55,435 nt of DNA from a bacterium (GTDB lineage Bacteria > Margulisbacteria > Marinamargulisbacteria > UBA817 > JAQBTH01): positions 1 through 55,435 of the forward strand of contig JAQBTH010000003.1 of NCBI GenBank assembly GCA_027623425.1. Reading direction: 5' to 3'. The notes below the pieces were generated by a model. That model made no database searches and was not told where the DNA came from. It was given only the letters and a program-made list of their open reading frames with translations. Of the stretch, positions 1 to 14,282 are shown one piece after another. How positions within the stretch are numbered: the stretch's first letter is position 1; every line of letters begins with the position of its first letter. Position numbers and translations under genes: made by a program.

Positions 1-2118
1 ACGGGTTTTCTTAATGGTGGTTTCATCGGCTAAAAAGATGTCCGCTAACATGTGTACCAAGCCATTGTAGTTTTCTTCGATGGCATTTTGGTACTGCGTA
101 TAAACATTATTATTATGTTCTTCCCAGGCTTCAATAAACTGGTTAATAAACGTGTTCATTTCCTCAATTTTGCGTTGGCTTGCCTTATTGATGGCCTTTA
201 ATACTTTTCTTCCGTTCTTAATTTGTGGGCTAACTTCGGAATCTTGGGCTAACTCTGTGGCGATTTTATTCCAGGTATCGCTAGCGGTAAAAACGGCTCC
301 CATAAACGACATAATCATCTGGTGGGCGGCCATAATTTTCATGTAATCGCGATTGATTCTGGCATAATCATAAATAACAAAACCCGATTCGGTTTGCCCT
401 TTATATTTGTTCATCGCACTGGTGGTAATGTTTTCACGCATTTCTTGCATTTCAAGATCAAAACGATATACATGTTCAGAAAAACCAGACGCGCTATACC
501 AGTTTTTCACACTATCTTGCGTGGCGTACTGAGTTATATCAACATCCACACCGTCATCGGCAATCGCATCAATAATATCGCCTAATAGGGGAACGTCTCC
601 AATGTTTAGGATATTAGTAAATACCCAATCAATCATGTCATCAATAGCAGTTCTTGAATTTGCAGATTGGGGTGATGCTGCTGGCGGGGCGCCAATATCG
701 GTTGCTAATGCAGCACGATAATCGAGTACGTGCTGATAAAAGACTTCAAAGTCCCCCGATGCACCATTCTGTTCTTCCAGGGCGCCTTCTAAATGATCTA
801 GTATACTTTGTGCCAACGTGGCCGCGTCTTGTATGCCTCCGCTACCTTGCAAACTCGCCAATAAGCCTGTGCGTTGAGACTCAATAAATGCATCAAAGGC
901 TGCAGTGGCTGTCGTAAAGCCTATTAAATCTGTTTTTGAAACCTTTACTGAGGTAATCGACTGCGTTGATGAAAAATAGATCTCAAATCCATATTGATTT
1001 TGAATGTTACTAAATAATAGGTGGCTATTCGCAGTGGCATCTAAGCTAGTTAGAGCTCGCCGGTCTGTGGCATCTAACGCCCATACATTGCCTGACAGGT
1101 CTTGGTATTGCACAAGGGCATGGCCAGCTGTTGTGCCGTAGGCTGTCATTTGTCCTGCAACGACTGACACATTCGCAGCAGCCTCACTCATACCAACCGC
1201 CTCAAAAGCCGCAATTAATAAACTGGCTTGTGTGTTTGCTAAATCCTCACAATCTCCGCTCTTACTGGCTAACGTGTCTTCAACGCTTGCCCATTGCTCG
1301 CCTTCATCGGCAAGATACTCAAAATTATCCAACATATAATCGTGAACCATGGTCACAATTTGTTCTTCGGTTAACCCTGAAAGATCCGATCCAAATATAA
1401 GGCTTAGTTCCGCTTGTACCGCGGCACTGTCGGGTTGAATGTACGTACTTGCTTGTGTGTAATCGACGGTGGTGTTGTCGTGGTTGATAAGCGTGCATTC
1501 ACCGGTATCACAGCAATTTTCAGAATAGGCTGAATAGTTGCTTGGCTCGTGCTCCACACTATCGTACTGACCTGCGATCAAGGCGAGGTTTTCGTTGGCT
1601 GTTTTATAGACCAATGCGGCTTCGTATTGGTTGAACCATGTGCGACCTTCCACCACTTTCACATCCATTGCGGCAATGTCTTTGTCGCATTTTTGGGCGC
1701 AGGCTGTTAATAGCGAGCCTTCGTAATTCAGAATTGTGCTGACCGGCACCTGCTTCTCGAAAAATAGATCTTTGGAATATTTGCGAATGGCGGTGGCCAT
1801 GGATTTGGCATCCATGTCGGTAGTGATGCGATTTGTATTTACAAAATGAGCGGCCTGTTTTTGAACTAGTTCGTGATTTGGATTGAGTTCCAATCCAAAT
1901 TCGCGGGATAGTTCGGACCAAAACTCAGACGTGTAGTTGGGGTTTCCAAACTGGTCTTTACCGTAGTCGCGCACGAAGACTTCATCTCTGAATGACTCCG
2001 TTGATTCACGGGTGTTATCATACTCAATTGTGCTGATGTAACTGGGAGAAGAAACGTCAAAACCCACGCGGGATGGCGTGTTTGGATCGAACCCCCAATT
2101 AAATTCTTTCATCTGCAC
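1..2118 (-). CDS. Large protein (>=706 aa, runs off window start) with transglutaminase-like Cys-His-Asp domain
   Basis: Not in the ORF track because its stop lies outside the window. Manual translation from GTG 2118 (or ATG 2112; SD-like AGGGGG at 2128-2133) found no stop in the stretches read, down to base 1. Contains W-x3-DTL-x4-GDCEDLA (Cys codon 1249-1251), GHALV (His 1120-1122) and WALDAT (Asp 1072-1074). Confidence 0.85.
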   Translation of the reverse strand, partial: MQMKEFNWGFDPNTPSRVGFDVSSPSYISTIEYDNTRESTESFRDEVFVRDYGKDQFGNPNYTSEFWSELSREFGLELNPNHELVQKQAAHFVNTNRITTDMDAKSMATAIRKYSKDLFFEKQVPVSTILNYEGSLLTACAQKCDKDIAAMDVKVVEGRTWFNQYEAALVYKTANENLALIAGQYDSVEHEPSNYSAYSENCCDTGECTLINHDNTTVDYTQASTYIQPDSAAVQAELSLIFGSDLSGLTEEQIVTMVHDYMLDNFEYLADEGEQWASVEDTLASKSGDCEDLANTQASLLIAAFEAVGMSEAAANVSVVAGQMTAYGTTAGHALVQYQDLSGNVWALDATDRRALTSLDATANSHLLFSNIQNQYGFEIYFSSTQSITSVKVSKTDLIGFTTATAAFDAFIESQRTGLLASLQGSGGIQDAATLAQSILDHLEGALEEQNGASGDFEVFYQHVLDYRAALATDIGAPPAASPQSANSRTAIDDMIDWVFTNILNIGDVPLLGDIIDAIADDGVDVDITQYATQDSVKNWYSASGFSEHVYRFDLEMQEMRENITTSAMNKYKGQTESGFVIYDYARINRDYMKIMAAHQMIMSFMGAVFTASDTWNKIATELAQDSEVSPQIKNGRKVLKAINKASQRKIEEMNTFINQFIEAWEEHNNNVYTQYQNAIEENYNGLVHMLADIFLADETTIKKTR

Positions 2119-2140
2119 TATGGTGTGCCCCCTAACATAG

Positions 2141-2186
2141 GTTTGGTTTGTACCTAGTTTATCGATTAAAATTTACGAAAACTTGT
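2141..2186 (-). promoter_or_regulatory. Putative sigma28/FliA-like promoter (ACAAG-N15-ATCGATAA)
   Basis: Minus strand reads ACAAGTTTTCGTAAATTTTAATCGATAAA. The -10 resembles GCCGATAA, and the same 11-mer recurs at 7780-7790. Confidence 0.45.
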
Positions 2187-2252: not shown

Positions 2253-2648
2253 TTAGATTTCGATACCCTTCATCAATTCGGCATCATCTATGGTTTTTCC
2301 AAAATTGGATTGTGATAATTTTTCGGGCATGCCTAACAAGAAATTCCCTGCTTTACCCACCACTTCTAAGCCCACTTCAAGCACGGCGGTTTGTTCTTCC
2401 ATTTCATAATGTGGGTATTGTTCGATCTCCTCGAGCAAGGTTTTCATATTTTTAAAATGATAGTCGTATTCATCGGCTATTTCTTTGTATAGTGCTGCAT
2501 CCGCAGATGTCACTTGAGCCGAGCGTAATTTTCTAACAAACTCAGTTAATTGAGCTAACATTTCTAAATATTTAAGCGTTAAGGCATGTAAATCAGCCTT
2601 GCTTTTTTCTCTTAATTTATCCGCTTCAAAACTATTTTCTGGAATCAT
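2253..2648 (-). CDS. Hypothetical acidic helical protein (131 aa), possibly an export chaperone
   Basis: Starts 2 nt after the rod/hook-like gene stop; amphipathic helical pattern. The function is a guess from size and context. Confidence 0.7.
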   Translation of the reverse strand: MIPENSFEADKLREKSKADLHALTLKYLEMLAQLTEFVRKLRSAQVTSADAALYKEIADEYDYHFKNMKTLLEEIEQYPHYEMEEQTAVLEVGLEVVGKAGNFLLGMPEKLSQSNFGKTIDDAELMKGIEI

Positions 2649-2650
2649 TA

Positions 2651-3535
2651 CTATGCTTTATCGATAGCAGAAAGGAATTTCGATAGCGTTGAAGAAATCA
2701 ACGTTAATGCAGACTGTACGGCGTTATAGCCTCTTTGGAGTTGAATACCTATGATGGTGGTTTCGGCTGGGTCAACGTTTGATGATTCTGCAAATCCACC
2801 ACGCACTTCCCCAAACCCCTCAGTGCCACTCACATCATACCGCATCACTTCACCCGATCCCGCATTAGTACGGTAGGTGTTGCCACTATGCGCGGTTAAT
2901 AAAGAGGGGTTTGGAATCTTGGCCAACGCCAATTGAAATAATACTTTACCTTCTGGGGCTTCGCCTTCACCAGAATCTTGAACATCTTTTCTAGCCGCAT
3001 AATTTGTGACTAAGGCGCCTGAATCTTCAAACCCTAGGTCTGTTACGTCCACTTCATCTGGGTCTACGGTAATGGCTGTTAAGGTGGATTTATCCACCGT
3101 TCCATCGTCTTTTACTTTATCCCCCATTACTTTTCGGCCGAATGAGTCAATTAATGTGCCATCGGCAGCAAAAATAAAATCACTGGCACGGGTGTATACA
3201 AAATCATTTAAGTTATCGGGTTTCAGTACAAATAGTCCACTACCTACTACCGCTGCATTTGTTGGTTCAGCAGGCCTTAAGCCACCTTGCGACCAATTGT
3301 AACCTAACGGAGAGAGTAACACACCTTGGGACACGCGCTGCGTGTTAAATGCGCCTCTATTTAAACCAGCCCCACCACCCATACGGTTAATTTGTTGGGT
3401 ATAGAGCGACACAAAGGTATATCGGGTTTGCTTGTAACCATCTGATTGAAAGGCCTGTACGTCGGCAGCTAATAATTTCATCGCTTCTGAATACGACTGA
3501 ATGGAACCTTCTATCATTTGTAACGTTTCAAACAT
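2651..3535 (-). CDS. Divergent flagellar rod/hook family protein (FlgG/FlgF/FlgE-like)
   Basis: Motifs GYK..R..F, WSQGGL, AAVVGSGLF, YTRASDF..DGTLI...G, and C-terminal G.AESSNVD.A......QRGY; strong SD AGGAGG. Confidence 0.85.
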   Translation of the reverse strand: MFETLQMIEGSIQSYSEAMKLLAADVQAFQSDGYKQTRYTFVSLYTQQINRMGGGAGLNRGAFNTQRVSQGVLLSPLGYNWSQGGLRPAEPTNAAVVGSGLFVLKPDNLNDFVYTRASDFIFAADGTLIDSFGRKVMGDKVKDDGTVDKSTLTAITVDPDEVDVTDLGFEDSGALVTNYAARKDVQDSGEGEAPEGKVLFQLALAKIPNPSLLTAHSGNTYRTNAGSGEVMRYDVSGTEGFGEVRGGFAESSNVDPAETTIIGIQLQRGYNAVQSALTLISSTLSKFLSAIDKA

Positions 3536-3566: not shown

Positions 3567-5360
3567 CTACGCGGCTTCTCGTATACTCGAGGTCTTAATT
3601 GGTTCGCCCTTATTATGTGCATCGATCAATTTGCTCTCACCCTTTATTCTGTCGTATGTTTCAGACAAGATTTTATGGTTTTGCGCATAATATGGACTAG
3701 GGTGCACTTCCATGGCAATTTCTAGCTGACTTATCTCTTCTCTGATAACAGCTGCCATTTCGATATTTTTACGATCTCTCACGCGATTCATTTGGTCTTT
3801 TTTGATCTTATAGCCCATTTTGCGCAATAATCGAATAATAGTCGCGCGGTCATTCTTTAATTTTGAAAATGCTGGCCCAGATAGTTTATGCAATGTTGCT
3901 TGCTCTAAATACCCGCCCTCTAAGCGATCCATTAACTGTATTTTAGCCAATAACTCGCCTTCTTTTCGCAGCTGCTCTTCTTTTTCATCTGTGTAAACAC
4001 CCAGTTTGATTAAGCCATTTTTCATGCGTTTCATTTTAAACGAAATGTCTATTTTTTCTTTGAAGTTGGTATTTAGCGATTTCAGCATGTATAAATTGCG
4101 CAACTTATCTTCTAATTGCTCGCCGCGATTAATATAGATTTTTTCTATTTCCTCTTGCCTATCTTTGCCTCTTGGGTCGCCCTCCCTAAAGTTCATATTG
4201 GATTGGCCAATTGGCGGAATAAATTCTGTTAGCCCCAAATCATCGATGGATTTATTTAATTTTTTCTGCAGGTCGGCTTCATCGATAATAACGCCTGCAG
4301 CGGCGGCGGCCTTCATGATCTTGGCGGTGCGTTCAGAGAATTCGTCTAAGGTTAATTGCCCTAACGATTGTTTGGTAAATTGATTCGTTGTTTCATCATA
4401 AAGTAAGGCCTCAAGTTCCTGGCGAAGCTCAATACCTAACCCTTCCATAATGCCGTTTAGGCCCCCTTTAACGGTTCCGTCTTTGGCCACTGCTGATAAG
4501 GCGTCTGCATTATTTTTGTGGTCAAACTTAGCCGATATCGCGCCTTCTGCATCGCCCTCACCTTGTGAAAAGAAGAATTTGATCAAACTGGATTTTAACT
4601 GCCCAACATATTGCTGCTTTACCATCTGTCCGACATTGGTTTCCATGCTTTGAATCTGTTTTAATGTCACCCCAGTTTTCTGAAGCTCCTTTTTGATCTT
4701 CTCCATCTTCTGTTTTTCATGGGGGTTTTGGGATACCACATACTTACCGAGTGCTTCGGTGTATTCTTTTAACCCCTTTTGTTGCCCTATCATTTGCTCT
4801 TTGTTGGTGTTCGCGCTCTGGCGCGCTGATTCTGCTTTTGTGTTTTTGGTATTACGCTTAGCCAATTCTAAAAGTGGGTTCCCGTCGTCTTCTTGAACTA
4901 GCCCTTCTTCTCCGGCGCCACCTTCAATAAATTCTGAGCGTTCTGTTTTACCCTTTGGCTTTGATTGCAATGCCGATTGAGACAACTGCACTTGGTCTTC
5001 TGGGTCATCGCCCTTTTTAAATTGATTTTCCAATTCCTGCACCAATTTGGCTTGTAATTCTTTGTTGCTTTTCTTTAATTCATTTTGACCATTTTGCTGT
5101 AGTGATTTCTGCATGATTTCATCTTTAGCGTCTTGGTGATCCGTACCCAACATTTGCTGAATTAAACTGTCGGATTTTTTGGTTTTACTTCCCTCTTTTG
5201 CGTCTTTACCCTTTTCCTTTTTGCCACGCAAATCAAGCTCTTCAACCATGGACTCGCCGGCAATCTCAGCTGCAAAAGTTGCATCCGGCTCAAACGAACG
5301 TTTGTTCTGATTCTGATTTGTATTTATATTCGTATTATTTAAATTTAGTCCGTTTGACAT
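3567..5360 (-). CDS. Hypothetical protein (597 aa), low-complexity charged N-terminus and helical/coiled-coil C-terminus
   Basis: Long ORF, SD AGGGG, operonic spacing; no recognisable motif. Confidence 0.8.
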   Translation of the reverse strand: MSNGLNLNNTNINTNQNQNKRSFEPDATFAAEIAGESMVEELDLRGKKEKGKDAKEGSKTKKSDSLIQQMLGTDHQDAKDEIMQKSLQQNGQNELKKSNKELQAKLVQELENQFKKGDDPEDQVQLSQSALQSKPKGKTERSEFIEGGAGEEGLVQEDDGNPLLELAKRNTKNTKAESARQSANTNKEQMIGQQKGLKEYTEALGKYVVSQNPHEKQKMEKIKKELQKTGVTLKQIQSMETNVGQMVKQQYVGQLKSSLIKFFFSQGEGDAEGAISAKFDHKNNADALSAVAKDGTVKGGLNGIMEGLGIELRQELEALLYDETTNQFTKQSLGQLTLDEFSERTAKIMKAAAAAGVIIDEADLQKKLNKSIDDLGLTEFIPPIGQSNMNFREGDPRGKDRQEEIEKIYINRGEQLEDKLRNLYMLKSLNTNFKEKIDISFKMKRMKNGLIKLGVYTDEKEEQLRKEGELLAKIQLMDRLEGGYLEQATLHKLSGPAFSKLKNDRATIIRLLRKMGYKIKKDQMNRVRDRKNIEMAAVIREEISQLEIAMEVHPSPYYAQNHKILSETYDRIKGESKLIDAHNKGEPIKTSSIREAA

Positions 5361-5372
5361 AACCTGCCCCCT

Positions 5373-5609
5373 TTATCGCTTTGCCGAAAGATTTGTTGAT
5401 ATATTCATTAATTCCATGCCTTTTTGAACGAGTTCCTTTTCCTGCTTTTTATTGATCTCTGCTTCACGTTGGCGCTGCAACTGTTTTACCCGAGATTGAA
5501 CCCTCTCAATATATATATCGAGTCTTGTGAGTTTTTCTTGCGTCTCTTTTCGATCTATGAGGCTATTTGTATCATCGCTGATAATGGTTACATTGTTACT
5601 TTTCATCAT
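5373..5609 (-). CDS. Small coiled-coil hypothetical protein
   Basis: ATGA overlap with the upstream stop; heptad-like charged sequence. Confidence 0.65.
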   Translation of the reverse strand: MMKSNNVTIISDDTNSLIDRKETQEKLTRLDIYIERVQSRVKQLQRQREAEINKKQEKELVQKGMELMNISTNLSAKR

Positions 5610-6403
5610 TGATAGTCCCTTATTAGTTCCAATGTTTGTTTCTCTAAGAGTAGTTCTTGCAGGATTTTTTTGACCTGATCTTCCTTAATTTCATTCACCT
5701 TTTCGCTGGTGTAATAATTAATACCTGTCAGTAGGTCCATTTGTTTCATTAATTGTGAACGCGTTTCTTTCAAAATCTTCTGACGGGCCTTATCTTTCTG
5801 TGACGAGGTAAATGCGGATATCAGCTCAAAGTTATACTCATTTTGCTCGAATAGCATTTCATTGTCCTCTATGGCGGCTTTGAGGGCCTTCTTCTGCATA
5901 ATTCGCAGCTCATCGGTGCTAACACCCATTAAACTTAATACAAATTGAATCATACCAAACTTAATTTCCGCATATTTTGCCATTAAAAAGTTATGGGATT
6001 TCGCCTCAATAAAGAATTTTTGATATTTGACTGACAAATCGGCCACTTTCGAGCCCATGTCGATCTTGTAACCTAAGAAATTTACGATACGGTCACGCGC
6101 GTGTTCCACCGGAGCCGCTTTACCTAAATTGCGCTTTTCCTGCGGCTTAATAAAATAATCACCCGTCTCATCTTTTCCCCATTTAAACTTGGGTTTTGCC
6201 CCAGGTGGCTGCTTGGCTCTATTGGTATTGACCAACACCGCTTCGTCCTTAGTATCAACCCCTTTTACAGTGGTTTCTTCGCGTTTTTGAGCGATTTCAG
6301 ACTGAAGCTTTTTATAGTATTGATTGTCCTTAATCTTATTAAATCGACTGTGTTGGTCGACCTGACTGGGATCATATTCGGCTATGCGATCTTCGCCGGC
6401 CAT
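5606..6403 (-). CDS. Hypothetical helical protein (265 aa)
   Basis: SD AGGGGG; coupled to neighbours; no recognisable motif. Confidence 0.8.
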   Translation of the reverse strand: MAGEDRIAEYDPSQVDQHSRFNKIKDNQYYKKLQSEIAQKREETTVKGVDTKDEAVLVNTNRAKQPPGAKPKFKWGKDETGDYFIKPQEKRNLGKAAPVEHARDRIVNFLGYKIDMGSKVADLSVKYQKFFIEAKSHNFLMAKYAEIKFGMIQFVLSLMGVSTDELRIMQKKALKAAIEDNEMLFEQNEYNFELISAFTSSQKDKARQKILKETRSQLMKQMDLLTGINYYTSEKVNEIKEDQVKKILQELLLEKQTLELIRDYQ

Positions 6404-6416
6404 ACCTTAACCCCCC

Positions 6417-6965
6417 TTACCCTTTTTTACGATTCGATGCTCGGCGTTCTGCCCGTGCTTTGGCTGCCATTTCTTCATGGTGCCTCATGTCATCGGCTTC
6501 AACTTCCTTGCGCTCTTTTTTAGTGGCTTCATTTCTCTGCTTTGTGGATTTATGTAAACTGCGATTTGACATCATTGCCATATTAAATTCCAAAAGTGCT
6601 GTACCATGCACAAGGTTACGCTCCGCAGTTGTCAGCACACCTGCTTCGCTTCTGTTATCGCCATCGCCTTCGATGCCAATTGAACCGGCGCCATCGCCAC
6701 CGCCACGTAATGCGTCAAAATCATCGCCACCGCCAATTGCACCAGCACTGTCATTATCGCCGATATTTGGTCGATTGGCTTGCGCACTATCTAAATCGAT
6801 CGATTCATCGGCAGCATCGATATCTTCAAGGTATTTTGAAAACCGTGCGGCAAATTGAGTTGGATCGCCTACCTTTTCAGCGGCGGCACGATCGAGACGT
6901 TCTTGAATGAACCGATCTAAGTATTCCGGGTCAGAGCCCATAAATCCTACTAGATTAATTGTCAT
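6417..6965 (-). CDS. Hypothetical protein (182 aa) with Gly/Asp-rich linker and charged C-terminal helix
   Basis: SD GGGTG; operonic spacing of 11-13 nt. Confidence 0.75.
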   Translation of the reverse strand: MTINLVGFMGSDPEYLDRFIQERLDRAAAEKVGDPTQFAARFSKYLEDIDAADESIDLDSAQANRPNIGDNDSAGAIGGGDDFDALRGGGDGAGSIGIEGDGDNRSEAGVLTTAERNLVHGTALLEFNMAMMSNRSLHKSTKQRNEATKKERKEVEADDMRHHEEMAAKARAERRASNRKKG

Positions 6966-6976
6966 AACGAATCACC

Positions 6977-7297
6977 CTAACCAGATAACATATTGTCGAG
7001 CTTTTGCTCAAAGTTACGAATAAATGTAAATACGTTGTTTACGAGCTCTAAGTTAGCTTGCTGAAAGTTCATATGAACTTGGAATACTGTCATGCCTGCT
7101 ACTGATTGCGTATCAACTTTGGTTCCATCGGAAAGAGTGACCTCTGATCCATCTTCAAGCTGCGATGCAAATGCATTTAAATCTTCATAAAACTGCCCCG
7201 TCGCCTCTCTAGTTAAGCCATAAATATCTAAATTAAATTGTTGGTCATTACGGCGTACGTTAATATGTGAAAAGAATGCTGTTGATGATGCTGTCAT
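6977..7297 (-). CDS. Small helical-hairpin protein, type III needle/inner-rod (SctF/SctI)-like
   Basis: SD AGGAGG. C-terminal amphipathic helix (MTVFQVHMNFQQANLELVNNVFTFIRNFEQKLDNMLSG) resembles needle/inner-rod C-termini. The CDS is secure; the function is tentative. Confidence 0.5.
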   Translation of the reverse strand: MTASSTAFFSHINVRRNDQQFNLDIYGLTREATGQFYEDLNAFASQLEDGSEVTLSDGTKVDTQSVAGMTVFQVHMNFQQANLELVNNVFTFIRNFEQKLDNMLSG

Positions 7298-7391: not shown

Positions 7392-7643
7392 CTACGAACC
7401 AGATACTTTACGACCTTGACCTTTAACGTGGTCAGATGCGTTTTTAGCAATACCTGCTGCATACTCTGTTAGTGATTGACCAACTTGTACCGCTGTGGTT
7501 GCTAGCGTCGCCGCTGAAATACTTAAAGATTGCGCGCTTGAAGATGAGTTGGCTGCGTTCTCTAGGTCGAACAAGGCATTCTCATATTTCTTTGCGTGTG
7601 CGTCTACTGCGTCTTTTAAATTCTGAAAACTTACACTAGTCAT
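7392..7643 (-). CDS. 83-aa Ala/Ser-rich protein, type III needle subunit (SctF)-like
   Basis: First gene of the operon, SD AAAGGGG. Size and helix-turn-helix pattern resemble the chlamydial needle protein CdsF as recalled from memory (not aligned computationally). Confidence 0.5.
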   Translation of the reverse strand: MTSVSFQNLKDAVDAHAKKYENALFDLENAANSSSSAQSLSISAATLATTAVQVGQSLTEYAAGIAKNASDHVKGQGRKVSGS

Positions 7644-7765
7644 AGTTAAAATCCCCTTTCAAGAATTGCGAGACTTATCTCGCGGATTTTGGTTTATTAC
7701 AGTTTTTTTTGATTTTGCCAATGCTAAACCAACGAGTGATTTGTTCCTGGCGCTCCCTCCTTTTT

Positions 7766-7807
7766 GTTTGTTTGACTTATTTATCGATTATACCTGGAAT
7801 TATGATG
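7766..7807 (-). promoter_or_regulatory. Putative promoter of the needle-like operon (sigma28-like -10 ATCGATAA overlapping TATAAT)
   Basis: Minus strand GGTATAATCGATAAATAAGTCAAACAAAC; shares its motif with 2141-2168; -35 is poor. Confidence 0.4.
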
Positions 7808-7848
7808 TATTGATATTTTATAATACGTTGCGCTATAGTAAATTTTAG

Positions 7849-8418
7849 ATGTTAGATCGAGCCCACGATAGTCCCCTTTTGAATTATTACTATAATAACC
7901 AAAAGGAAAGTTTACTAAATGCAATTCTTGAAATTATGGAATCTGGCGGCGTTCCGCCACTGGATGATATGTTTCATATTTTGGCAGAAACCGAGGATGT
8001 GGAAATCCTGGGGCTTAGTCTTGAACTATTATATTTAAATCATGAGACGTTTCAAAAACAACTGTTTGCAAAGTTTAATGAGTCTGATTCAGATCGCCTT
8101 AAACTTTGGATACTTGTTGTGCTTTGCATTCAACCGAATGAAACCACCATGTACTTTATCGTTGAAATCTATATAAAGCATGAGGAATTTCGGCCTCATA
8201 TCGCCAAAACAGCTTTTAAACAAAAAATCAAAATGTTTATGGGCCTCACTCGGTACGTAGAGATTACCGATCTCTCGGAAGACGATGAACAAATCGTGTT
8301 GGATTTACTCGAAACCGTGCCTCGTTCTACGATTATGCGCATTGGCGGTGGGTTAGGAATGCTTAAAATAATGGATTATTACTATAAAGTCCCCCCTAAT
8401 AAACGTCGCCAAGATTAA
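7849..8418 (+). CDS. Hypothetical Leu-rich helical protein (HEAT/ARM-like pattern)
   Basis: 189-aa ORF filling the gap between two minus-strand operons; possible TTGATA-N18-TATAGT promoter at 7810-7839. Confidence 0.75.
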   Translation: MLDRAHDSPLLNYYYNNQKESLLNAILEIMESGGVPPLDDMFHILAETEDVEILGLSLELLYLNHETFQKQLFAKFNESDSDRLKLWILVVLCIQPNETTMYFIVEIYIKHEEFRPHIAKTAFKQKIKMFMGLTRYVEITDLSEDDEQIVLDLLETVPRSTIMRIGGGLGMLKIMDYYYKVPPNKRRQD

Positions 8419-8471: not shown

Positions 8472-10310
8472 TCATCTTTTCCAGTAGGGCAACCAAAGCA
8501 TTTCGATAAGGGCTTCATTGGACTCACACAGGGTTTGGGCTACCAATACAGGGTCGGTTTTTAGCAACGTCTTAAGTTTGGCTATTTTAGCGCGACTTTG
8601 TGCAATAAGCGGGCTATCAGGGAGGTCTTTGGCGCTTAGCAACTGCTCTTCATTGTGCAATAACACGTTTATCCACATCAAAAAGGGAAATACTTGTAAG
8701 GCGGCGTCACTCTCCAACACATCTTGCTGTTCATCGATCGAAAAGGTAACATAACTGTCTCTTTGACCCACCTCACCCCTCTCTACATATCCTTTTACTT
8801 CCTCTAGAATACGTTTCAACCTCTTTACACGTACTCCTAAGGCATCTAAATCAGAAATTGGCCGAAGAAAACTGGCGTTAAAGGTGGTTTTGGTCACGTA
8901 ACGGCCATAGGGCGCAGGTCGGCCTGAAGTCAGCTCATTCACTACGGCTTCGGACTGTTGAAGCACCGTAAATAACATGCACATATTCCCTTTTGCCTCA
9001 CCGGTTTCAATAAAATGATTGTATTCGGATACGTCTTCTTCATCGGCACCATCCGCTAACTGTTCTAAAAAGTCATATTGCAGTGAAAGGGCTGGTAATA
9101 ATTCCGCTTTTACCCACACCTCCAGGCCCTCTTTCCAATAGGTGGGCATGGCAAAACTCTTTGTTGCGTGCCTATTTTCAATGATCTGAGTCGGGTCAAA
9201 GGGCGTGTTTAAACGGTGCGTCACAATATGAGCGGCCATGTTATGAACCATGCGTGTATTCCATTTCCAAATTTGGTCCAAATACGGTGTGTTTGAGTCT
9301 AAAACGAGACTATTTGGCATTACCTCATTTACCCCATCTGCAAAGGCATGAGCCGCAGACTGGTCATTGCCATATTTAAGTAGCGCGTATGGAAATATAT
9401 AGTCTGGAAAATCCAAGTTACAATGGGGGGTTGTGCATGGCGTCAGTTCTTCTAAATCCGACAGTACCAACTGATTTTCAGGCAACACTACCATGTTATT
9501 CCAACTGGCATTTCGATGCAACGATGGGGGCGATAAAACCAAGAAATTGGCCACGCATTTTCCTGCTTGGTGTAAATAGTGTGTAAAGGTGGGCTTATAG
9601 GACGAATCAAACGCCGGATTATCCGTAAATGAATAGCGAATGGAACCCGGGCTAAGTCGCAACAATTCGCCCAAATCAAATTTAAAATCAGGCCCAACCA
9701 AGGCCATTGGCACCGCGCCACAGGGCAACAATTGTTGTTTTTTTTCGTCATCATCTAATTTATCGTGAAGTTGGCATAAGTGATTATGTTCCGCCTCAAT
9801 GCCTTCCCAATCGCTGCCACCTGTAATGCGTAAATGGGCTTTAAGATAGGCCCCTGCCTGGTTTCTTAAATGAAACGATGGAAAGCCACCGGTTGGTGCG
9901 CCAGCCCCTTTTAACTCAACGACAAATTCCGCGTCGGCTAGTCTTGCGATTAGTGGTTCGTAGTTGGAGTCTGGTGTGGCTCGGTGTAAAACGACGCCCG
10001 ATCGCGACATTTCTGGCGAGTCTTCTGGGGCCACCATCAGCAGAGCCCAAAGCGACTGTGTGGCCGCAGGATCAGTGGCGAGTACCTGATTGTTTTGCAT
10101 CAGCTCAGTTAGTTGTGGTGGTAATTCAGTGGCGATAGTGGCACGTTGCCACGGTTGATCACTATCTTGCACGCTTAAGGGTACAATGTGGGTCACCATT
10201 TGCGTGTCTAAATTGATATCGCGAAACGACGGCGAATCTGAATACACCGGTGTTATTTTGTGTGCCTTATTCCGGCTAAATCCAAGTAAGTATGGGGTCA
10301 ATTTGGCCAC
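8472..10310 (-). CDS. SelO/YdiU-like atypical kinase-fold protein, paralog 2
   Basis: Motifs VELKGAG, LLRLSPGSIRYSF, HRNASWNNM, LSDLEE in SelO order; overlaps the upstream paralog by 13 nt. Confidence 0.65.
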   Translation of the reverse strand: MAKLTPYLLGFSRNKAHKITPVYSDSPSFRDINLDTQMVTHIVPLSVQDSDQPWQRATIATELPPQLTELMQNNQVLATDPAATQSLWALLMVAPEDSPEMSRSGVVLHRATPDSNYEPLIARLADAEFVVELKGAGAPTGGFPSFHLRNQAGAYLKAHLRITGGSDWEGIEAEHNHLCQLHDKLDDDEKKQQLLPCGAVPMALVGPDFKFDLGELLRLSPGSIRYSFTDNPAFDSSYKPTFTHYLHQAGKCVANFLVLSPPSLHRNASWNNMVVLPENQLVLSDLEELTPCTTPHCNLDFPDYIFPYALLKYGNDQSAAHAFADGVNEVMPNSLVLDSNTPYLDQIWKWNTRMVHNMAAHIVTHRLNTPFDPTQIIENRHATKSFAMPTYWKEGLEVWVKAELLPALSLQYDFLEQLADGADEEDVSEYNHFIETGEAKGNMCMLFTVLQQSEAVVNELTSGRPAPYGRYVTKTTFNASFLRPISDLDALGVRVKRLKRILEEVKGYVERGEVGQRDSYVTFSIDEQQDVLESDAALQVFPFLMWINVLLHNEEQLLSAKDLPDSPLIAQSRAKIAKLKTLLKTDPVLVAQTLCESNEALIEMLWLPYWKR

Positions 10311-12082
10311 CTTTGGTAGGGTAATGCGATCAGATCATGAACGGCCTTGTTGCCTAGCGCGAACGCCGCTTTGATGGTTTCGGGATCCGTTTTGAGTTGC
10401 TCATAGAGGGTTTGGCACTTTGTCAGCGAGTCGCTTAGCACTTTGCGTGTTGCCGCGTCCCACTCATTCGATTTTAAGGCGCCCTCTAAAAACCGTGTTT
10501 CGGTGTTGCAATACACTGACAGCACACCAAGAAACGGATAGGCGATAAGGCCAAAATCAAAGAATTTAATATTAATGCGTAAGCGTTGATGTTCGGTTAA
10601 GTAGTGGGTATCAATGGGAATTTTTCCTGTTGCTACGGCGGCCTTCATTTCCTCTATCCATCTCGCGGCCATTTGCTCGCGCTCATACACCTCATAAGAG
10701 AATTTAAACTCGCCTAAAAGTAAATTCTCAATTTTTTGAGCGGTGATATACGCGCCAAACTCACTGGCCTGATCGCTTGCAGGTTTATGGGTGTCTACCA
10801 CCTCATTTTGGTGCTGCAGAGTTGCGTTTTTGGCGATTAATTCTTGCAATACTTTGCGTTGCTTTTCCATACTTGGAATACCGTGGCGCTCTACCCATTC
10901 GAGTGTGGGCATAGAAAAATAATCCGAGTGGGCAAAATAATGAATTGCCGTTACATTTTCATCAATAAAATCCGTATTCATGGTCATATTTAGCCGGGTT
11001 TTAATCACATTTGGCGCAACTTTTTCCATCATATAGGCATTATATAGGCACAAATCGGTTGTGGGCGCATCTTGAGCCCATTTCGATGCGCACCCCACAC
11101 CTGCTTTTAAGCCGCTTATAAACTGGGGCGTCCACATATGCCGAAACGGGTGGGTATGCAAGTACGGTGGGTACAAACATTCCATCAAGTCCAAATTACA
11201 ATGACCGGTGGCCAAGGTGGTTAGCTCTTCAAAATCCGTTAATACGTAGCGATTCTCACTCACATACACCATATTATTCCAGCTATTATTTCGGTGTTGC
11301 GCGGGCGATGGCAATGAAAAGTACTTACTGCTTTCTTTGCCTGCATCAATCATAAATTGAGACTGACTTCCGCCTAAGTGCTGCGTCATTGCCGGGTTGT
11401 TATAGAAACTAAATCGCAGTGTGGATGGCGCTAAACGTAGCAGCAGCGCCATGTCGATGCGTTGGTTTTGTGTATGAATTGCGAATGGCATTAATCCAAG
11501 CGCTCGCATGTCTTCCCCATCGGGTATCTGGTCTTCGATCGCCTTCATATTGCATAGGTTTAAAAATTCCCGTTCTGCTCCAGCCAGCCCCATTCCACCC
11601 GTCACACGTAAATGGGAATTATTGGTACCTGCCTGGTTTCGAAAATGAGTGTGTGGAAATCCTCCCACTGGGCTTCCGACTCCTTTGGCTTCGATCACAT
11701 ACTCGTAGCCACTTACTTTGAGCGTCATTGGTTCGAAGCCGGTATCTGTCTTTCTCATCAATGCTCCCATACGGGCCATGGCCACTTGGAAACGGTCGAC
11801 GGTGTCGGCTTTTGGCATATACATTAGCGCGTAATACGGTGATTTTTCTTCGGTCGTGGTGCAAAAGAATTGGTTTTTCGCGATTATCGTCTTTAGATCG
11901 TCAGGCAAATAGTCCTTATCATCGGTTAAGTACCATTGATTGGCGCTTTGCACGATTTCTAGTGGAATTAGCGTCGCTGAATACCATTCTCGCTTGATGC
12001 CCATATCTTGAAAATGAGGCGAGTCGCCCAATAATGGAACTATTTTTCCGTTTTCCCGATATAAGCCAATAATATGTTTCAC
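10298..12082 (-). CDS. SelO/YdiU-like atypical kinase-fold protein, paralog 1
   Basis: Motifs IEAKGVG, AEREF, LLRLAPSTLRFSF, HRNNSWNNM, LTDFEE; GTGA overlap with the GT4 stop. Confidence 0.65.
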   Translation of the reverse strand: MKHIIGLYRENGKIVPLLGDSPHFQDMGIKREWYSATLIPLEIVQSANQWYLTDDKDYLPDDLKTIIAKNQFFCTTTEEKSPYYALMYMPKADTVDRFQVAMARMGALMRKTDTGFEPMTLKVSGYEYVIEAKGVGSPVGGFPHTHFRNQAGTNNSHLRVTGGMGLAGAEREFLNLCNMKAIEDQIPDGEDMRALGLMPFAIHTQNQRIDMALLLRLAPSTLRFSFYNNPAMTQHLGGSQSQFMIDAGKESSKYFSLPSPAQHRNNSWNNMVYVSENRYVLTDFEELTTLATGHCNLDLMECLYPPYLHTHPFRHMWTPQFISGLKAGVGCASKWAQDAPTTDLCLYNAYMMEKVAPNVIKTRLNMTMNTDFIDENVTAIHYFAHSDYFSMPTLEWVERHGIPSMEKQRKVLQELIAKNATLQHQNEVVDTHKPASDQASEFGAYITAQKIENLLLGEFKFSYEVYEREQMAARWIEEMKAAVATGKIPIDTHYLTEHQRLRINIKFFDFGLIAYPFLGVLSVYCNTETRFLEGALKSNEWDAATRKVLSDSLTKCQTLYEQLKTDPETIKAAFALGNKAVHDLIALPYQRWPN

Positions 12083-13146
12083 CGTGCTGCAATTTCCTTT
12101 AATTTCTCTTCAAATTTATCTACTTCTGTTTCAATTGTAATGGCCTTTGCTACTCGATCGCAATTTTTAGCCAATCGATTGTAGGTGTCCGCATCATCCA
12201 GCGACTCAATTGCGGCCTGCCAATTTTCCAACACAGTAAACTCATTAAGTGCAATGGCACTGTCGTTTATGGCTTCTTTTACGCCACACACATTACTCAC
12301 TATAGCAGGCACATTGTTGTATGCGGCTTCAAACAACACTCTAGGCAAACTGTCTTTTACTAAAGATGGCACGATTACAATCCTGCTTTTTGCGTAAATC
12401 GGCCTCATATCTGTGGTGTTTGGCACGTACAACACATTTGGGTATTTATAGAAATGAAAATCATGATATCGCGGGTCTACCCACCCCTGCACCACCTGGA
12501 ACTGCCGATCGGGCATGCGTTGAATCAGCCACTCTAACACTTCGGCGCCTTTGGCCGGCATTGGGTTTATCATGGTGATGTAGCTCGGTTGTCTGTCTGC
12601 CGCGTTAGACACACAAAACTCGGGCTCCGGCGCCGAATAGACCACAGTCGCCTCTTTCCCCCACCGCACCCGCGTCTGCTCTTTCATGTACTCGCATACG
12701 CTGAAGAGCGCTTTAAACTCGTCCTTCACGCCATCTAACATGGTATACACGTTCTCACTTCGAATAAAACACACATAGTTTTGCGACTTGTCTTTAAAGA
12801 ACTGGGTCACATCGGTGTCAAAATACGGGTTATGCATCATCACAATATCTGGCTTAAATTCCGCTAATAAACGCTCGTATTTTGGAAAATAATCCGCCTC
12901 TTTTACCACCCGAAGCCGCACGCCATCCCACTCATAATGCAACTCTTCATCTTCTATGCGCCCGTGAAGGCCTGTTCCAGCAAGCTCTTTGAGCAAGCGG
13001 TCAAAGTCAAACGGGCCTGTTGTAAATAGGGTTTCTATTTGGTGCCCGCGTTGTTGCAGGTGCTTTACGAGCACTTGGTTACTTAAATCCGCCCCACTTG
13101 GATACAGCGGAAATGGTTTTCTGTAATTTGCGAGTACGATTTTCAA
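12079..13146 (-). CDS. Glycosyltransferase family 4 (GT-B)
   Basis: N-terminal KIVLAN...SGA..S...L...L..RGH; KG motif; PS..D.LPRV.FEA....P.I.S...G..E. Start reassigned to TTG 13146 (SD AGGAG, TTGA overlap). Confidence 0.88.
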   Translation of the reverse strand: MKIVLANYRKPFPLYPSGADLSNQVLVKHLQQRGHQIETLFTTGPFDFDRLLKELAGTGLHGRIEDEELHYEWDGVRLRVVKEADYFPKYERLLAEFKPDIVMMHNPYFDTDVTQFFKDKSQNYVCFIRSENVYTMLDGVKDEFKALFSVCEYMKEQTRVRWGKEATVVYSAPEPEFCVSNAADRQPSYITMINPMPAKGAEVLEWLIQRMPDRQFQVVQGWVDPRYHDFHFYKYPNVLYVPNTTDMRPIYAKSRIVIVPSLVKDSLPRVLFEAAYNNVPAIVSNVCGVKEAINDSAIALNEFTVLENWQAAIESLDDADTYNRLAKNCDRVAKAITIETEVDKFEEKLKEIAAR

Positions 13147-14282
13147 TTTGAATCTCCTGTATTTGGGCGTTTGCTTTTGGCATGTCTCAAACAAAAGTCG
13201 TGTAGAGAAGCCGCACGTTGGAAGCGCGGGTACGCCTGCAAAACAGGCTCTATTTCGGGACAAACGCGAGCGGACTCTCTTGTTAGTATGTGACTGTGAG
13301 CGAGAAAAAACAACCGTAGAGTGTGACATGGCAGTAGCGATACGGCCACATCAAATTCAGGCGTCACAATAAGCGGCATGGCATTATCAAGCACCGTAAT
13401 TAACAATTCAGAAACTAAAATCTTATCGGGCATCTGAGCATCCATATACTGGGACGTCAGTGTGGGAATCTGTCCGTTTAAAGCCTCTTTTAATACCTCG
13501 GTGTAGTGGGCCAAAGCTGCGGCACTTTTATCTAACCTTAATCGCTCCCATGCCGCGTCTCTTTTGGTATGAAATGGGCGTGTTTGGTGTGGCGCGTCAT
13601 GGTGTTGGATCAATCGGGTTACCTGCGTTAAATGACTATAGTCCGTGTTTAGCGGCACGGCCTTGCTCTTTAACATGTGAATGGTAAAACTGGTGCGATC
13701 TAAACTGCTCTGGCGAATCAATCGCGGCGCCAGTTCCCCACAATACTGTGCGATTTCAGACTCATTGGCGTAGTACCGGCTATTATCCAACTGGTAAAAT
13801 TCGTTTTCCTCTAACAGTTGGTCCGACAACATGTTAAAGATCACGCCCAAGCGCGCCACTTGATAGGCCTTTGCAATCATCTGGCGCACATGGGCCTCAT
13901 GATCCTGTTCAATGATGGTCATCACACCACTCATAACCACCCAATCTGGCGCTATTTTGGGCGTATACTCTAGTAAATCTTGTATATGAAAGTGGTGGTG
14001 AGGAAATTGAGCCTCAGCTTGTTTTACGGCGAATTCAGACACGTCTATGCCGTCATAATGTAGGGGAGCTGTACCACGCACATGGCGCAAGTAAGCGAGT
14101 AATTCGCCGGTGCCGGCACCGCAGTCTAATACCGATAGATTGTGGCAGGAAATTGGCCCTGTGATCTGTTCGAAGTTTGTGGCGAGAATGGCGTAGTGCG
14201 ACCAATCGTTTGTACGAAGGAGCGTCGGGGAACCGGACTGTGCGGTGGCCTCGTAATGGGCTTTATTTCTTGTGCTTTTCAT
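13143..14282 (-). CDS. Class I SAM-dependent methyltransferase with C-terminal extension
   Basis: VLDCGAGTG motif I, YDGIDVS, DWVVMSG; start reassigned to ATG 14282 (ATGA overlap). Confidence 0.85.
   Translation of the reverse strand: MKSTRNKAHYEATAQSGSPTLLRTNDWSHYAILATNFEQITGPISCHNLSVLDCGAGTGELLAYLRHVRGTAPLHYDGIDVSEFAVKQAEAQFPHHHFHIQDLLEYTPKIAPDWVVMSGVMTIIEQDHEAHVRQMIAKAYQVARLGVIFNMLSDQLLEENEFYQLDNSRYYANESEIAQYCGELAPRLIRQSSLDRTSFTIHMLKSKAVPLNTDYSHLTQVTRLIQHHDAPHQTRPFHTKRDAAWERLRLDKSAAALAHYTEVLKEALNGQIPTLTSQYMDAQMPDKILVSELLITVLDNAMPLIVTPEFDVAVSLLPCHTLRLFFLAHSHILTRESARVCPEIEPVLQAYPRFQRAASLHDFCLRHAKSKRPNTGDSN

Follow-up and report, generated by a model that had tools for sequence, protein, structure and literature searches.

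A needle-like hairpin protein at the head of a flagellar-type operon in Marinamargulisbacteria: a candidate filament subunit in place of flagellin

Which protein forms the outer part of a flagellar motor if no flagellin is recognizable in the genome? This question is raised by a stretch of 55,435 nucleotides (contig JAQBTH010000003.1 of assembly GCA_027623425.1 from an uncultivated marine member of the Marinamargulisbacteria; hereafter the window), in which an operon on the minus strand starts with the gene of a small, probably very abundant helical protein, here called hairpin A, and also encodes an axial protein of the FlgE/FlgF/FlgG family. Flagella and injectisomes count as two separate outcomes of a single ancestral type III machine, and the origin of one from the other is an old and unsettled question. 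The lineage described here has a complete flagellar basal body with stators and lacks every recognizable gene of the filament module, in whose place stands a conserved and apparently highly expressed operon headed by a protein resembling the injectisome needle subunit SctF. With it, the relationship of flagellum and injectisome becomes testable in a living group: what the motor assembles, whether it rotates and whether it secretes. Judged from sequence comparisons, there is about an even chance that hairpin A is exported and serves as the main building block of a distal, needle-like filament in place of flagellin. If it proves to be a chaperone or a regulator, all that is left of the finding is a new small family at an unusual flagellar locus.

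A small helical hairpin and its likeness to needle subunits

The open reading frame (ORF) of hairpin A, with its ATG at 7643-7641 and its stop codon at 7392-7394, encodes an N-terminal helix, a Ser-rich stretch, a long C-terminal helix and a tail of Gly, Ser, Lys and Arg residues ending with GRKVSGS. Cys, Trp and Pro are missing, and the N-terminus as read from the translation is not hydrophobic and contains no leader. A preliminary description of this DNA, made from the letters alone, had listed the helices, the Ser-rich turn, the terminal motif, the missing residues and the lack of a signal peptide, all of which were confirmed by translation. It had also placed the gene first in its operon. 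This holds, since hairpin A is preceded by a promoter-like motif and followed on the same strand by seven complete co-directional ORFs and an eighth that runs off the window. In the AlphaFold2 model, calculated with an alignment of 14 sequences (A1), residues 6-33 and 41-81 form helices joined by a loop at residues 34-40. SctF proteins (PF09392, with EscF, SsaG, PrgI, MxiH and YscF; also CdsF) comprise approximately 70-90 amino acids (aa), form a helix-turn-helix hairpin and lack a signal peptide. With 83 aa and two antiparallel helices in the model, hairpin A agrees with them in size and fold. As with SctF, its gene opens a type III operon and has genes of other small helical proteins next to it.

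The ORF is a genuine gene and not a product of chance, as it is conserved in relatives and represented by a family in a protein library. A word-indexed search of 5.8 billion proteins returned three relatives, one of them from a single-cell genome of 'Candidatus Marinamargulisbacteria', and a profile search of 1.84 billion representative proteins recovered 43 representatives at E≤0.001. The relatives found by a DNA-pattern search stem from metagenome-assembled genomes (MAGs) of Marinamargulisbacteria or Margulisiibacteriota. On the evidence of these searches, hairpin A belongs to an unannotated family. In both family alignments (A1 and A2) the two helices are conserved, and the loop between them varies in length and composition. 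Inserts between the helices reach approximately 160 aa and bring some members (P0007, P0021, P0028 and P0033) to 129-238 aa. Moreover, the gene occurs in tandem copies in three genomes (three copies in G002, two in G007 and three in G029). A loop that tolerates inserts and tandem gene copies are typical traits of surface filament subunits, and the combination of conserved termini around a hypervariable middle with multi-copy genes is reminiscent of flagellin.

The likeness to SctF was detected by two approaches. In an unbiased ESM-Atlas feature search of 7.7 million clusters, the three best clusters for hairpin A were all T3SS_needle_F (PF09392), with 181, 177 and 176 of 256 features shared; the top cluster belongs to Chlamydiota, and its match (score 0.90, 181 shared features) was rated as a lead rather than proof. 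For profile-profile alignment by hhalign, a set of eight SctF sequences was compiled from EscF of E. coli Sakai, five plasmid-borne SctF and two database homologues, with the chlamydial CdsF left out. A 41-sequence alignment of hairpin A matched this set with a probability of 62.7% (E 7.2e-5) over 71 columns end to end, and after the addition of five syntenic homologues from across the class (46 sequences) the value rose to 72.3% (E 3e-5). Reversed SctF gave only 0.8%, and none of 100 column shuffles (mean 9.1, maximum 17.5) reached the observed score of 29.8. Compared with 157 small proteins of its own genome, the hairpin A profile scored at most 13.9, while six of the eight single SctF sequences reached 14.9-18.7 and thus outranked all of them.

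There are, on the other hand, differences between the two groups. A Pro residue is located at the turn in 8/8 aligned SctF, whereas the turn of hairpin A is rich in Ser and lacks Pro, its loop takes up inserts and no profile hidden Markov model (HMM) of the SctF family matches. The resemblance to a needle subunit stated in the preliminary description is supported, though not proven, as a remote similarity and not as membership of PF09392. The profile-profile alignment which it had proposed as a check gave moderate probabilities with clean controls for the broad alignments and failed with the small one (see below). As far as sequence comparisons go, hairpin A is needle-like and plausibly a distant SctF relative or a close architectural analogue, but it cannot be filed as a member of the SctF family.

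Several results weigh against a needle-type filament subunit. The SctF signal is moderate and depends on the alignment, since only the broader alignments yield it; with the 14-sequence alignment A1, hhalign gave 0.5%, which is below the 3.8% of the reversed control. PF09392 was detected at E≤1 neither in hairpin A nor in a six-frame search of the whole genome, and it is absent from the 25 families listed, out of 52, for 41 members of the hairpin A family (E≤10). A Pfam scan of the protein matched no family at all at E≤1. A PDB sequence search with the family profile produced four matches (E 0.27-3.2), none of them from type III secretion, and a Foldseek search of the PDB with the hairpin A model found nothing at E≤10. 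In the wide VIA-align search, the same model reached Z values of at most 7.6; the 50 matches listed are generic helical hairpins, and needle proteins are not among them. The model itself is of moderate confidence (mean pLDDT 66.9, pTM 0.32). As to the ESM-Atlas search, 4-10% of shuffled proteins obtain a first match of 0.9, and for one in three all ten matches fall into a single family.

It is conceivable from these data that hairpin A is a helical protein of the cytoplasm or associated with the membrane and has no relationship to SctF, its likeness to SctF and its flagellar position merely reflecting how common helical hairpins are. The generic hairpins obtained in the structure searches (Z≤7.6), the missing HMM match, the moderate hhalign probability and the ESM-Atlas caveats would all suit such a protein. 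However, class-wide synteny with a FlgE-family gene and with a second small protein (protein B, see below), a sigma-28-like promoter kept at 16/18 loci and the rank of the SctF sequences above all 157 small proteins of the genome make this explanation very improbable.

Flagellar machinery and filament genes across the class

To place the locus in its genomic context, 61 genomes of the phylum including the own genome were compared, all of which are MAGs or single-amplified genomes (SAGs). The own genome (1.86 Mb, 119 contigs, 90% complete; the window is its contig C17) contains a single FHIPEP (FlhA) gene, which adjoins the genes of FliP, FliQ, FliR, FlhB, FliM and FliN. FliP, FliQ, FliR and FlhB score best as flagellar equivalogs, FliP and FlhB above the flagellar cut-offs and FliR slightly below its own. 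A second cluster encodes FliF, FlgB, FlgC, an FlgF-like protein, FliA/sigma-28 and an FlhB-related protein as well as FlgG, FlgH and FlgI, and a third one comprises a weak FliG match, MotA (E 2e-58) and a MotB-family protein (E 3e-45). Since the genome holds just three Flg_bbr_C proteins, the 294-aa FlgE/FlgF/FlgG-family protein of the hairpin A operon is the only hook-type candidate; its TIGR03506 match (E 9.3e-27, 94.6 bits) exceeds the cut-off of 70.25. The sole export gate and the neighbours of hairpin A are thus flagellar, and the machine around it (rod, P/L rings, MotAB) is that of a flagellum and not of an injectisome, although a secretin was not searched for. The chlamydia-like injectisome setting implied by the preliminary description was wrong in this respect.

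The gene fliE is usually located after flgC and before fliF. In this position, a 198-aa ORF without any family match was found (L017: 3198-3794, minus strand; contig C106 of the own genome, G000), and a 424-aa ORF rich in Pro, Ser and Gln, also without a family, lies upstream of the FlhB-related gene (L017: 10411-11685, minus strand). The two ORFs may encode divergent FliE- and FliK-type proteins, respectively.

The filament module gave a different picture. In the own genome, Flagellin_N had no match, no Flagellin_C match exceeded the cut-off, and FliD_C, CsrA and FliW were not found; FlgM (PF04316) was missing at E≤1 both in the genome and in the hairpin A protein. FliS and FlgK, the other flagellin partners looked for, were not detected here either. 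An NCBIfam FlgK match of hairpin A was taken as noise (E 0.0092; 15.3 bits compared to a cut-off of 170.75). Across the phylum, FlhA is present in 55/61 genomes but Flagellin_N in only 2/61, which would flag a blind spot of annotation; FlgK was found above the cut-off in one of the 61 genomes (G057) and FliS in none of 31. The absences are consistent across 23 high-quality genomes. It has to be considered as a further point against a flagellin substitute that in MAGs and SAGs these absences mean 'not found' and that a very divergent flagellin could have been missed. The single genome with FlgK above the cut-off, G057 (L013, L015, L016 and L063), encodes four flagellins and has FlhA twice, and neither hairpin A nor protein B was detected in it. 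A conventional flagellum and, in addition, a second cluster of flagellar type appear to be encoded there.

With flagellin (FliC; PF00669/PF00700), hairpin A would share the proposed role, and both possess conserved terminal helices around a variable middle of surface type. Tandem paralogues, a sigma-28-type promoter and a very high predicted expression are also common to them. Flagellins have, however, a size of at least approximately 250 aa. Hairpin A is only about 83 aa long and therefore has no room for the D1 domain of flagellin. Furthermore, no flagellin HMM matched, and hhalign of hairpin A with three Margulisbacteria flagellins from a related genome gave at most 0.4%, a ceiling that applied likewise to protein B and to SctF when compared with the same three flagellins.

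Class-wide profiles detected hairpin A in 35/61 genomes and protein B, sometimes in two tandem copies, in 43/61. According to a comparison of coordinates, 32 of the 35 genomes with hairpin A have B as the next gene downstream of it on the same strand; in the other three, the two genes are located on different contigs. In G013, the A-like gene (L026 on C5) encodes a protein of 110 aa with a long loop rich in Ser, Thr and Asn, and B is found elsewhere (L041 on C2). Even G019, which belongs to a different family of the class, has kept the order of A, B, a long ORF, ORFs of 281, 77 and 600 aa and an FlgE-like gene.

Reduced symbionts such as Buchnera have retained the flagellar export apparatus and the basal body without a flagellin gene. 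The genomes described here differ from this type in that stators, C-ring and sigma-28 are retained, a conserved and highly codon-adapted operon of small proteins of exported type occupies the place of the late genes, and the pattern is found throughout a class made up mostly of MAGs of free-living aquatic bacteria. Another point of reference is the non-flagellar type III secretion system (NF-T3SS). Abby and Rocha 2012 (PMC3459982) describe profile similarity between SctF and FliC/FlgL and argue that the first NF-T3SS was derived from the flagellum, with an SctF-based structure resembling its flagellar homologue. The same study reports an 'intermediate' NF-T3SS of Myxococcales which lacks FlgBCDEK, FliEG, FlgH, MotAB and SctF. 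As described there, the Myxococcales system resembles the present one in being a type III machine outside both textbook classes, but its gene content is the opposite, as FlgB, FlgC, FlgG, FlgH, FlgI, MotAB and an SctF-like protein are present here.

No paper on the locus or on a flagellin-less motor in Margulisbacteria was found in the literature, nor one on flagellar or type III genes of Marinamargulisbacteria, in a search that did not cover subscription journals and with supplements that may hold gene tables. In two genome papers on the group (PMC6349859 and PMC6784892), the word stem 'flagell' occurs 0 times, and a passage of a flagellin survey (PMC7018530) names Margulisbacteria only among the phyla with few observed flagellins.

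Promoter, expression and partner of the putative filament subunit

Upstream of hairpin A, a promoter-like pair of boxes was identified, the second of which is of the sigma-28 -10 type. The pattern AT[AG]CA[ATC]-N15-20-CGAT[AT] occurs upstream of 16/18 hairpin A genes examined, compared to a mean of 0.12 and a maximum of 2 in 500 shuffles, a count that overstates the significance because the pattern was derived from the same upstream regions. The comparison included positions 7644-7813 of the window (minus strand) and the upstream regions of L003-L011, L026, L040-L046 and L060. A classical sigma-28 promoter, TAAA-N15-GCCGATAA, is not present, since the upstream box is other than TAAA. The genome contains two FliA-like sigma factors, of 222 aa (on C106) and 300 aa (on C30), and one may speculate that the second of them reads the non-classical promoter. 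Within the long leader, an SD-like (Shine-Dalgarno-like) element (GGAGG) lies near the 5′ end, and GGAG or GAGG follows soon after the -10 box in most relatives. Control of the leader by CsrA/FliW was dropped as an explanation because neither protein was found in the own genome.

As flgM is expressed from a late (class 3) promoter, the sigma-28-type -10 box of hairpin A also brings a regulator into play. Hairpin A might be an analogue of FlgM, i.e. a small anti-sigma-28 factor whose export by the flagellar apparatus releases late gene expression. FliA/sigma-28 and a second FliA-like sigma are encoded, PF04316 is missing at E≤1, and hairpin A is small and devoid of a signal peptide. Nevertheless, little probability was assigned to this explanation: both helices are conserved and not just a C-terminal, sigma-binding half, the genes occur in tandem with inserts of up to approximately 160 aa between the helices, and the SctF-type signals and the very high codon adaptation do not suit a regulator of this kind.

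The codon adaptation index (CAI) of hairpin A is 0.77, corresponding to the 99.4th percentile of 1550 ORFs and exceeding the median of 0.72 of the reference set, which consisted of 28 ORFs of the window taken as ribosomal-protein genes by size and order alone. Protein B has a CAI of 0.73 (95.7th percentile), the FlgE-like gene 0.66 and the other operon genes 0.60-0.72. No RNA sequencing runs carrying the locus are listed; there are two DNA runs, both from one aquatic-metagenome study. That hairpin A is a high-copy filament subunit, as the preliminary description had suggested, thus receives indirect support from its codon adaptation, the tandem copies and the conserved promoter of its own.

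Protein B is even more needle-like than hairpin A in the ESM-Atlas search (score 0.93, 195-198 shared features, 19/30 matches in the PF09392 set), but hhalign of its family with SctF gave just 0.2-1.5%, so that the needle-like character of B is confined to language-model features. In its AlphaFold2 model (pLDDT 76.2), a beta-hairpin precedes a long helical hairpin that bears a small beta tip. Its 38 homologues are all annotated as 'hypothetical' and have no Pfam match. The best Foldseek hit had an E of 0.45, with a flagellar proximal-rod chain at E 0.67, and in VIA the best Z was 7.6; CdsO/YscO, hook-filament junction and hook chains at Z 6.7-7.1 were at background level. Whether A and B are paralogues is unproven because their hhalign values reach just 3.5-15.4%.

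The properties of B lead to the assumption that hairpin A might be exported without providing the bulk of the polymer, for instance as a junction, adaptor, cap or tip protein or as a secreted effector or regulator, with the filament, if there is one, made from B or, polyhook-like, from the FlgE-family protein. B is more widespread and more conserved than A (43/61 compared to 35/61 genomes) and outscores it on the PF09392 clusters, the FlgE-family protein shares the operon with a long charged, ruler-like protein, and rotation by MotAB suits a curved filament of hook type better than a straight needle. Yet the separate promoter, the tandem copies, the insert-tolerant loop and the higher CAI (0.77, compared to 0.73 for B and 0.66 for the FlgE-like gene) belong to A and not to B, and it is B that lacks profile similarity to SctF. 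A role as minor component is therefore considered rather unlikely.

Another possible function is suggested by the order of the two genes. A small hairpin preceding a needle-like protein also fits a co-chaperone gene in front of a needle gene, which has to be counted against hairpin A as the polymer itself. On a Photobacterium plasmid, a small gene annotated as an EscE/YscE-family co-chaperone is located directly upstream of sctF. By analogy, hairpin A, directly upstream of B in 32/35 genomes, might be a cytoplasmic co-chaperone of the SctE/YscE type which keeps the subunit B, needle-like in ESM-Atlas, monomeric before export. By contrast, the ESM-Atlas matches of A are needle (PF09392) clusters and not chaperone families, A aligns with SctF end to end, and none of the co-chaperone family HMMs matched it in the Pfam scan at E≤1. 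Tandem duplication, large loop inserts, a very high CAI and a separate strong promoter would be unusual for a chaperone as well. Taken together, a co-chaperone function appears unlikely.

For the reading preferred here, hairpin A as major subunit of a distal filament, the following course of assembly can be envisaged. Hairpin A, which has no Sec signal, would be exported as a late substrate through the flagellar-type gate and would polymerize on the rod or hook into a thin needle-like filament that replaces flagellin. The two conserved helices would line the wall of the filament tube, and the variable loop rich in Ser, Thr and Gly, or the inserted domain in some relatives, would face outward. 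Protein B may be a minor partner, such as an adaptor, a cap or a second subunit. A wider and more doubtful proposal, which is put forward tentatively, is that Marinamargulisbacteria possess a rotary organelle consisting of a flagellar-type basal body (rod, P/L rings, C-ring and MotAB) and an external filament of SctF-like hairpins, in which subunits of approximately 85-125 aa (A, with B) are used instead of flagellin, FlgK/L and FliD. Such an organelle could be a relative of the flagellum-to-injectisome transition that has survived, or flagellin could have been replaced independently by a minimal subunit reduced to the core helices. It might serve swimming, secretion or attachment. The stators are in tension with the proposed structure, and this too counts against it, because rotation is implied by MotA/MotB, for which a straight needle would be poorly suited as a propeller.

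Coordinates and neighbouring genes

The features of the locus are compiled in Table 1.

Table 1. Features identified at the hairpin A locus (positions refer to the window)
Feature	Position	Strand	Remarks
Frame running off the window start, on the operon strand	1-2172	-	at least 724 aa; weak transglutaminase/peptidase-like matches
Operon gene, unmatched to any family	2253-2648	-	131 aa
FlgE/FlgF/FlgG-family axial protein, hook or distal-rod type	2651-3535	-	294 aa; TIGR03506; FlgE D1 and Flg_bbr_C domains
Gene of a highly charged protein	3567-5360	-	597 aa; no family; directly upstream of the FlgE-family gene; 600-aa counterpart in G019
Coiled-coil-like operon gene	5373-5609	-	78 aa; weak HrpB7/SctO-type match TIGR02559, E 0.0011
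Operon gene, unmatched to any family	5606-6403	-	265 aa; 281-aa counterpart at the same position in G019
Operon gene, unmatched to any family	6417-6965	-	182 aa; positional counterparts of 177-836 aa in relatives
Hairpin B (protein B) gene	6977-7297	-	106 aa; unannotated partner; predicted beta-hairpin and long helical hairpin
Stem-loop 3′ of the hairpin A stop codon	7353-7381	-	without U-tail; not kept in relatives
Hairpin A gene	7392-7643	-	83 aa; two predicted helices joined by a Ser-rich loop; translation, AlphaFold2, family searches
Leader of approximately 130 nt	7644-7780	-	SD-like GGAGGGAG at 7753-7760; small hairpin at 7666-7685; true SD at approximately 7652-7659
Promoter-like pair	7781-7813	-	ATACAT-type box, approximately 18 nt, then CGATAA (sigma-28-type -10)
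Divergent gene, no family matched	7849-8418	+	189 aa; class-wide neighbour of hairpin A

The hairpin downstream of the gene, to which the preliminary description had referred, exists as a stem-loop. Its stretch of 103 nt folds with -23.6 kcal/mol (z = -3.09), and an equally good fold was obtained with only 1/200 shuffles. It has, however, no U-tail, and no terminator was called on the minus strand. Nor is it conserved, since the spacer between A and B comprises just 6-26 nt in four of the five relatives read.

Among the other genes of the operon, the TIGR02559 match of the 78-aa protein reached 19.3 bits compared to a cut-off of 134.4, and a counterpart of 77 aa exists in G019. The charged 597-aa protein is, as a guess from its position and composition, a ruler similar to FliK/SctP. 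The transglutaminase/peptidase-like matches of the frame at the window start (E 7e-6 and 7e-4) are both below the cut-offs. Counterparts of the divergent gene, with 177-214 aa, are located beside the A-B pair wherever the flank is available.

Further away from the operon, two adjacent paralogous ORFs of 612 and 594 aa (8472-12082, minus strand) matched no Pfam family in scans at E≤1 for the first and E≤0.01 for the second; in G003 (L003: 2681-3175), a look-alike of their C-terminal part takes up the corresponding relative position. A group-1 glycosyltransferase gene (12079-13329, minus strand) is located 4.4 kb upstream of hairpin A; its PF00534 match (E 1.2e-8) exceeds the cut-off. It is pure speculation that this enzyme is relevant here, which would be the case if the Ser/Thr-rich loop of hairpin A were O-glycosylated. 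The rest of the window contains, as judged by size, operons of ribosomal-protein genes and two very long ORFs of the size of RNA polymerase genes.

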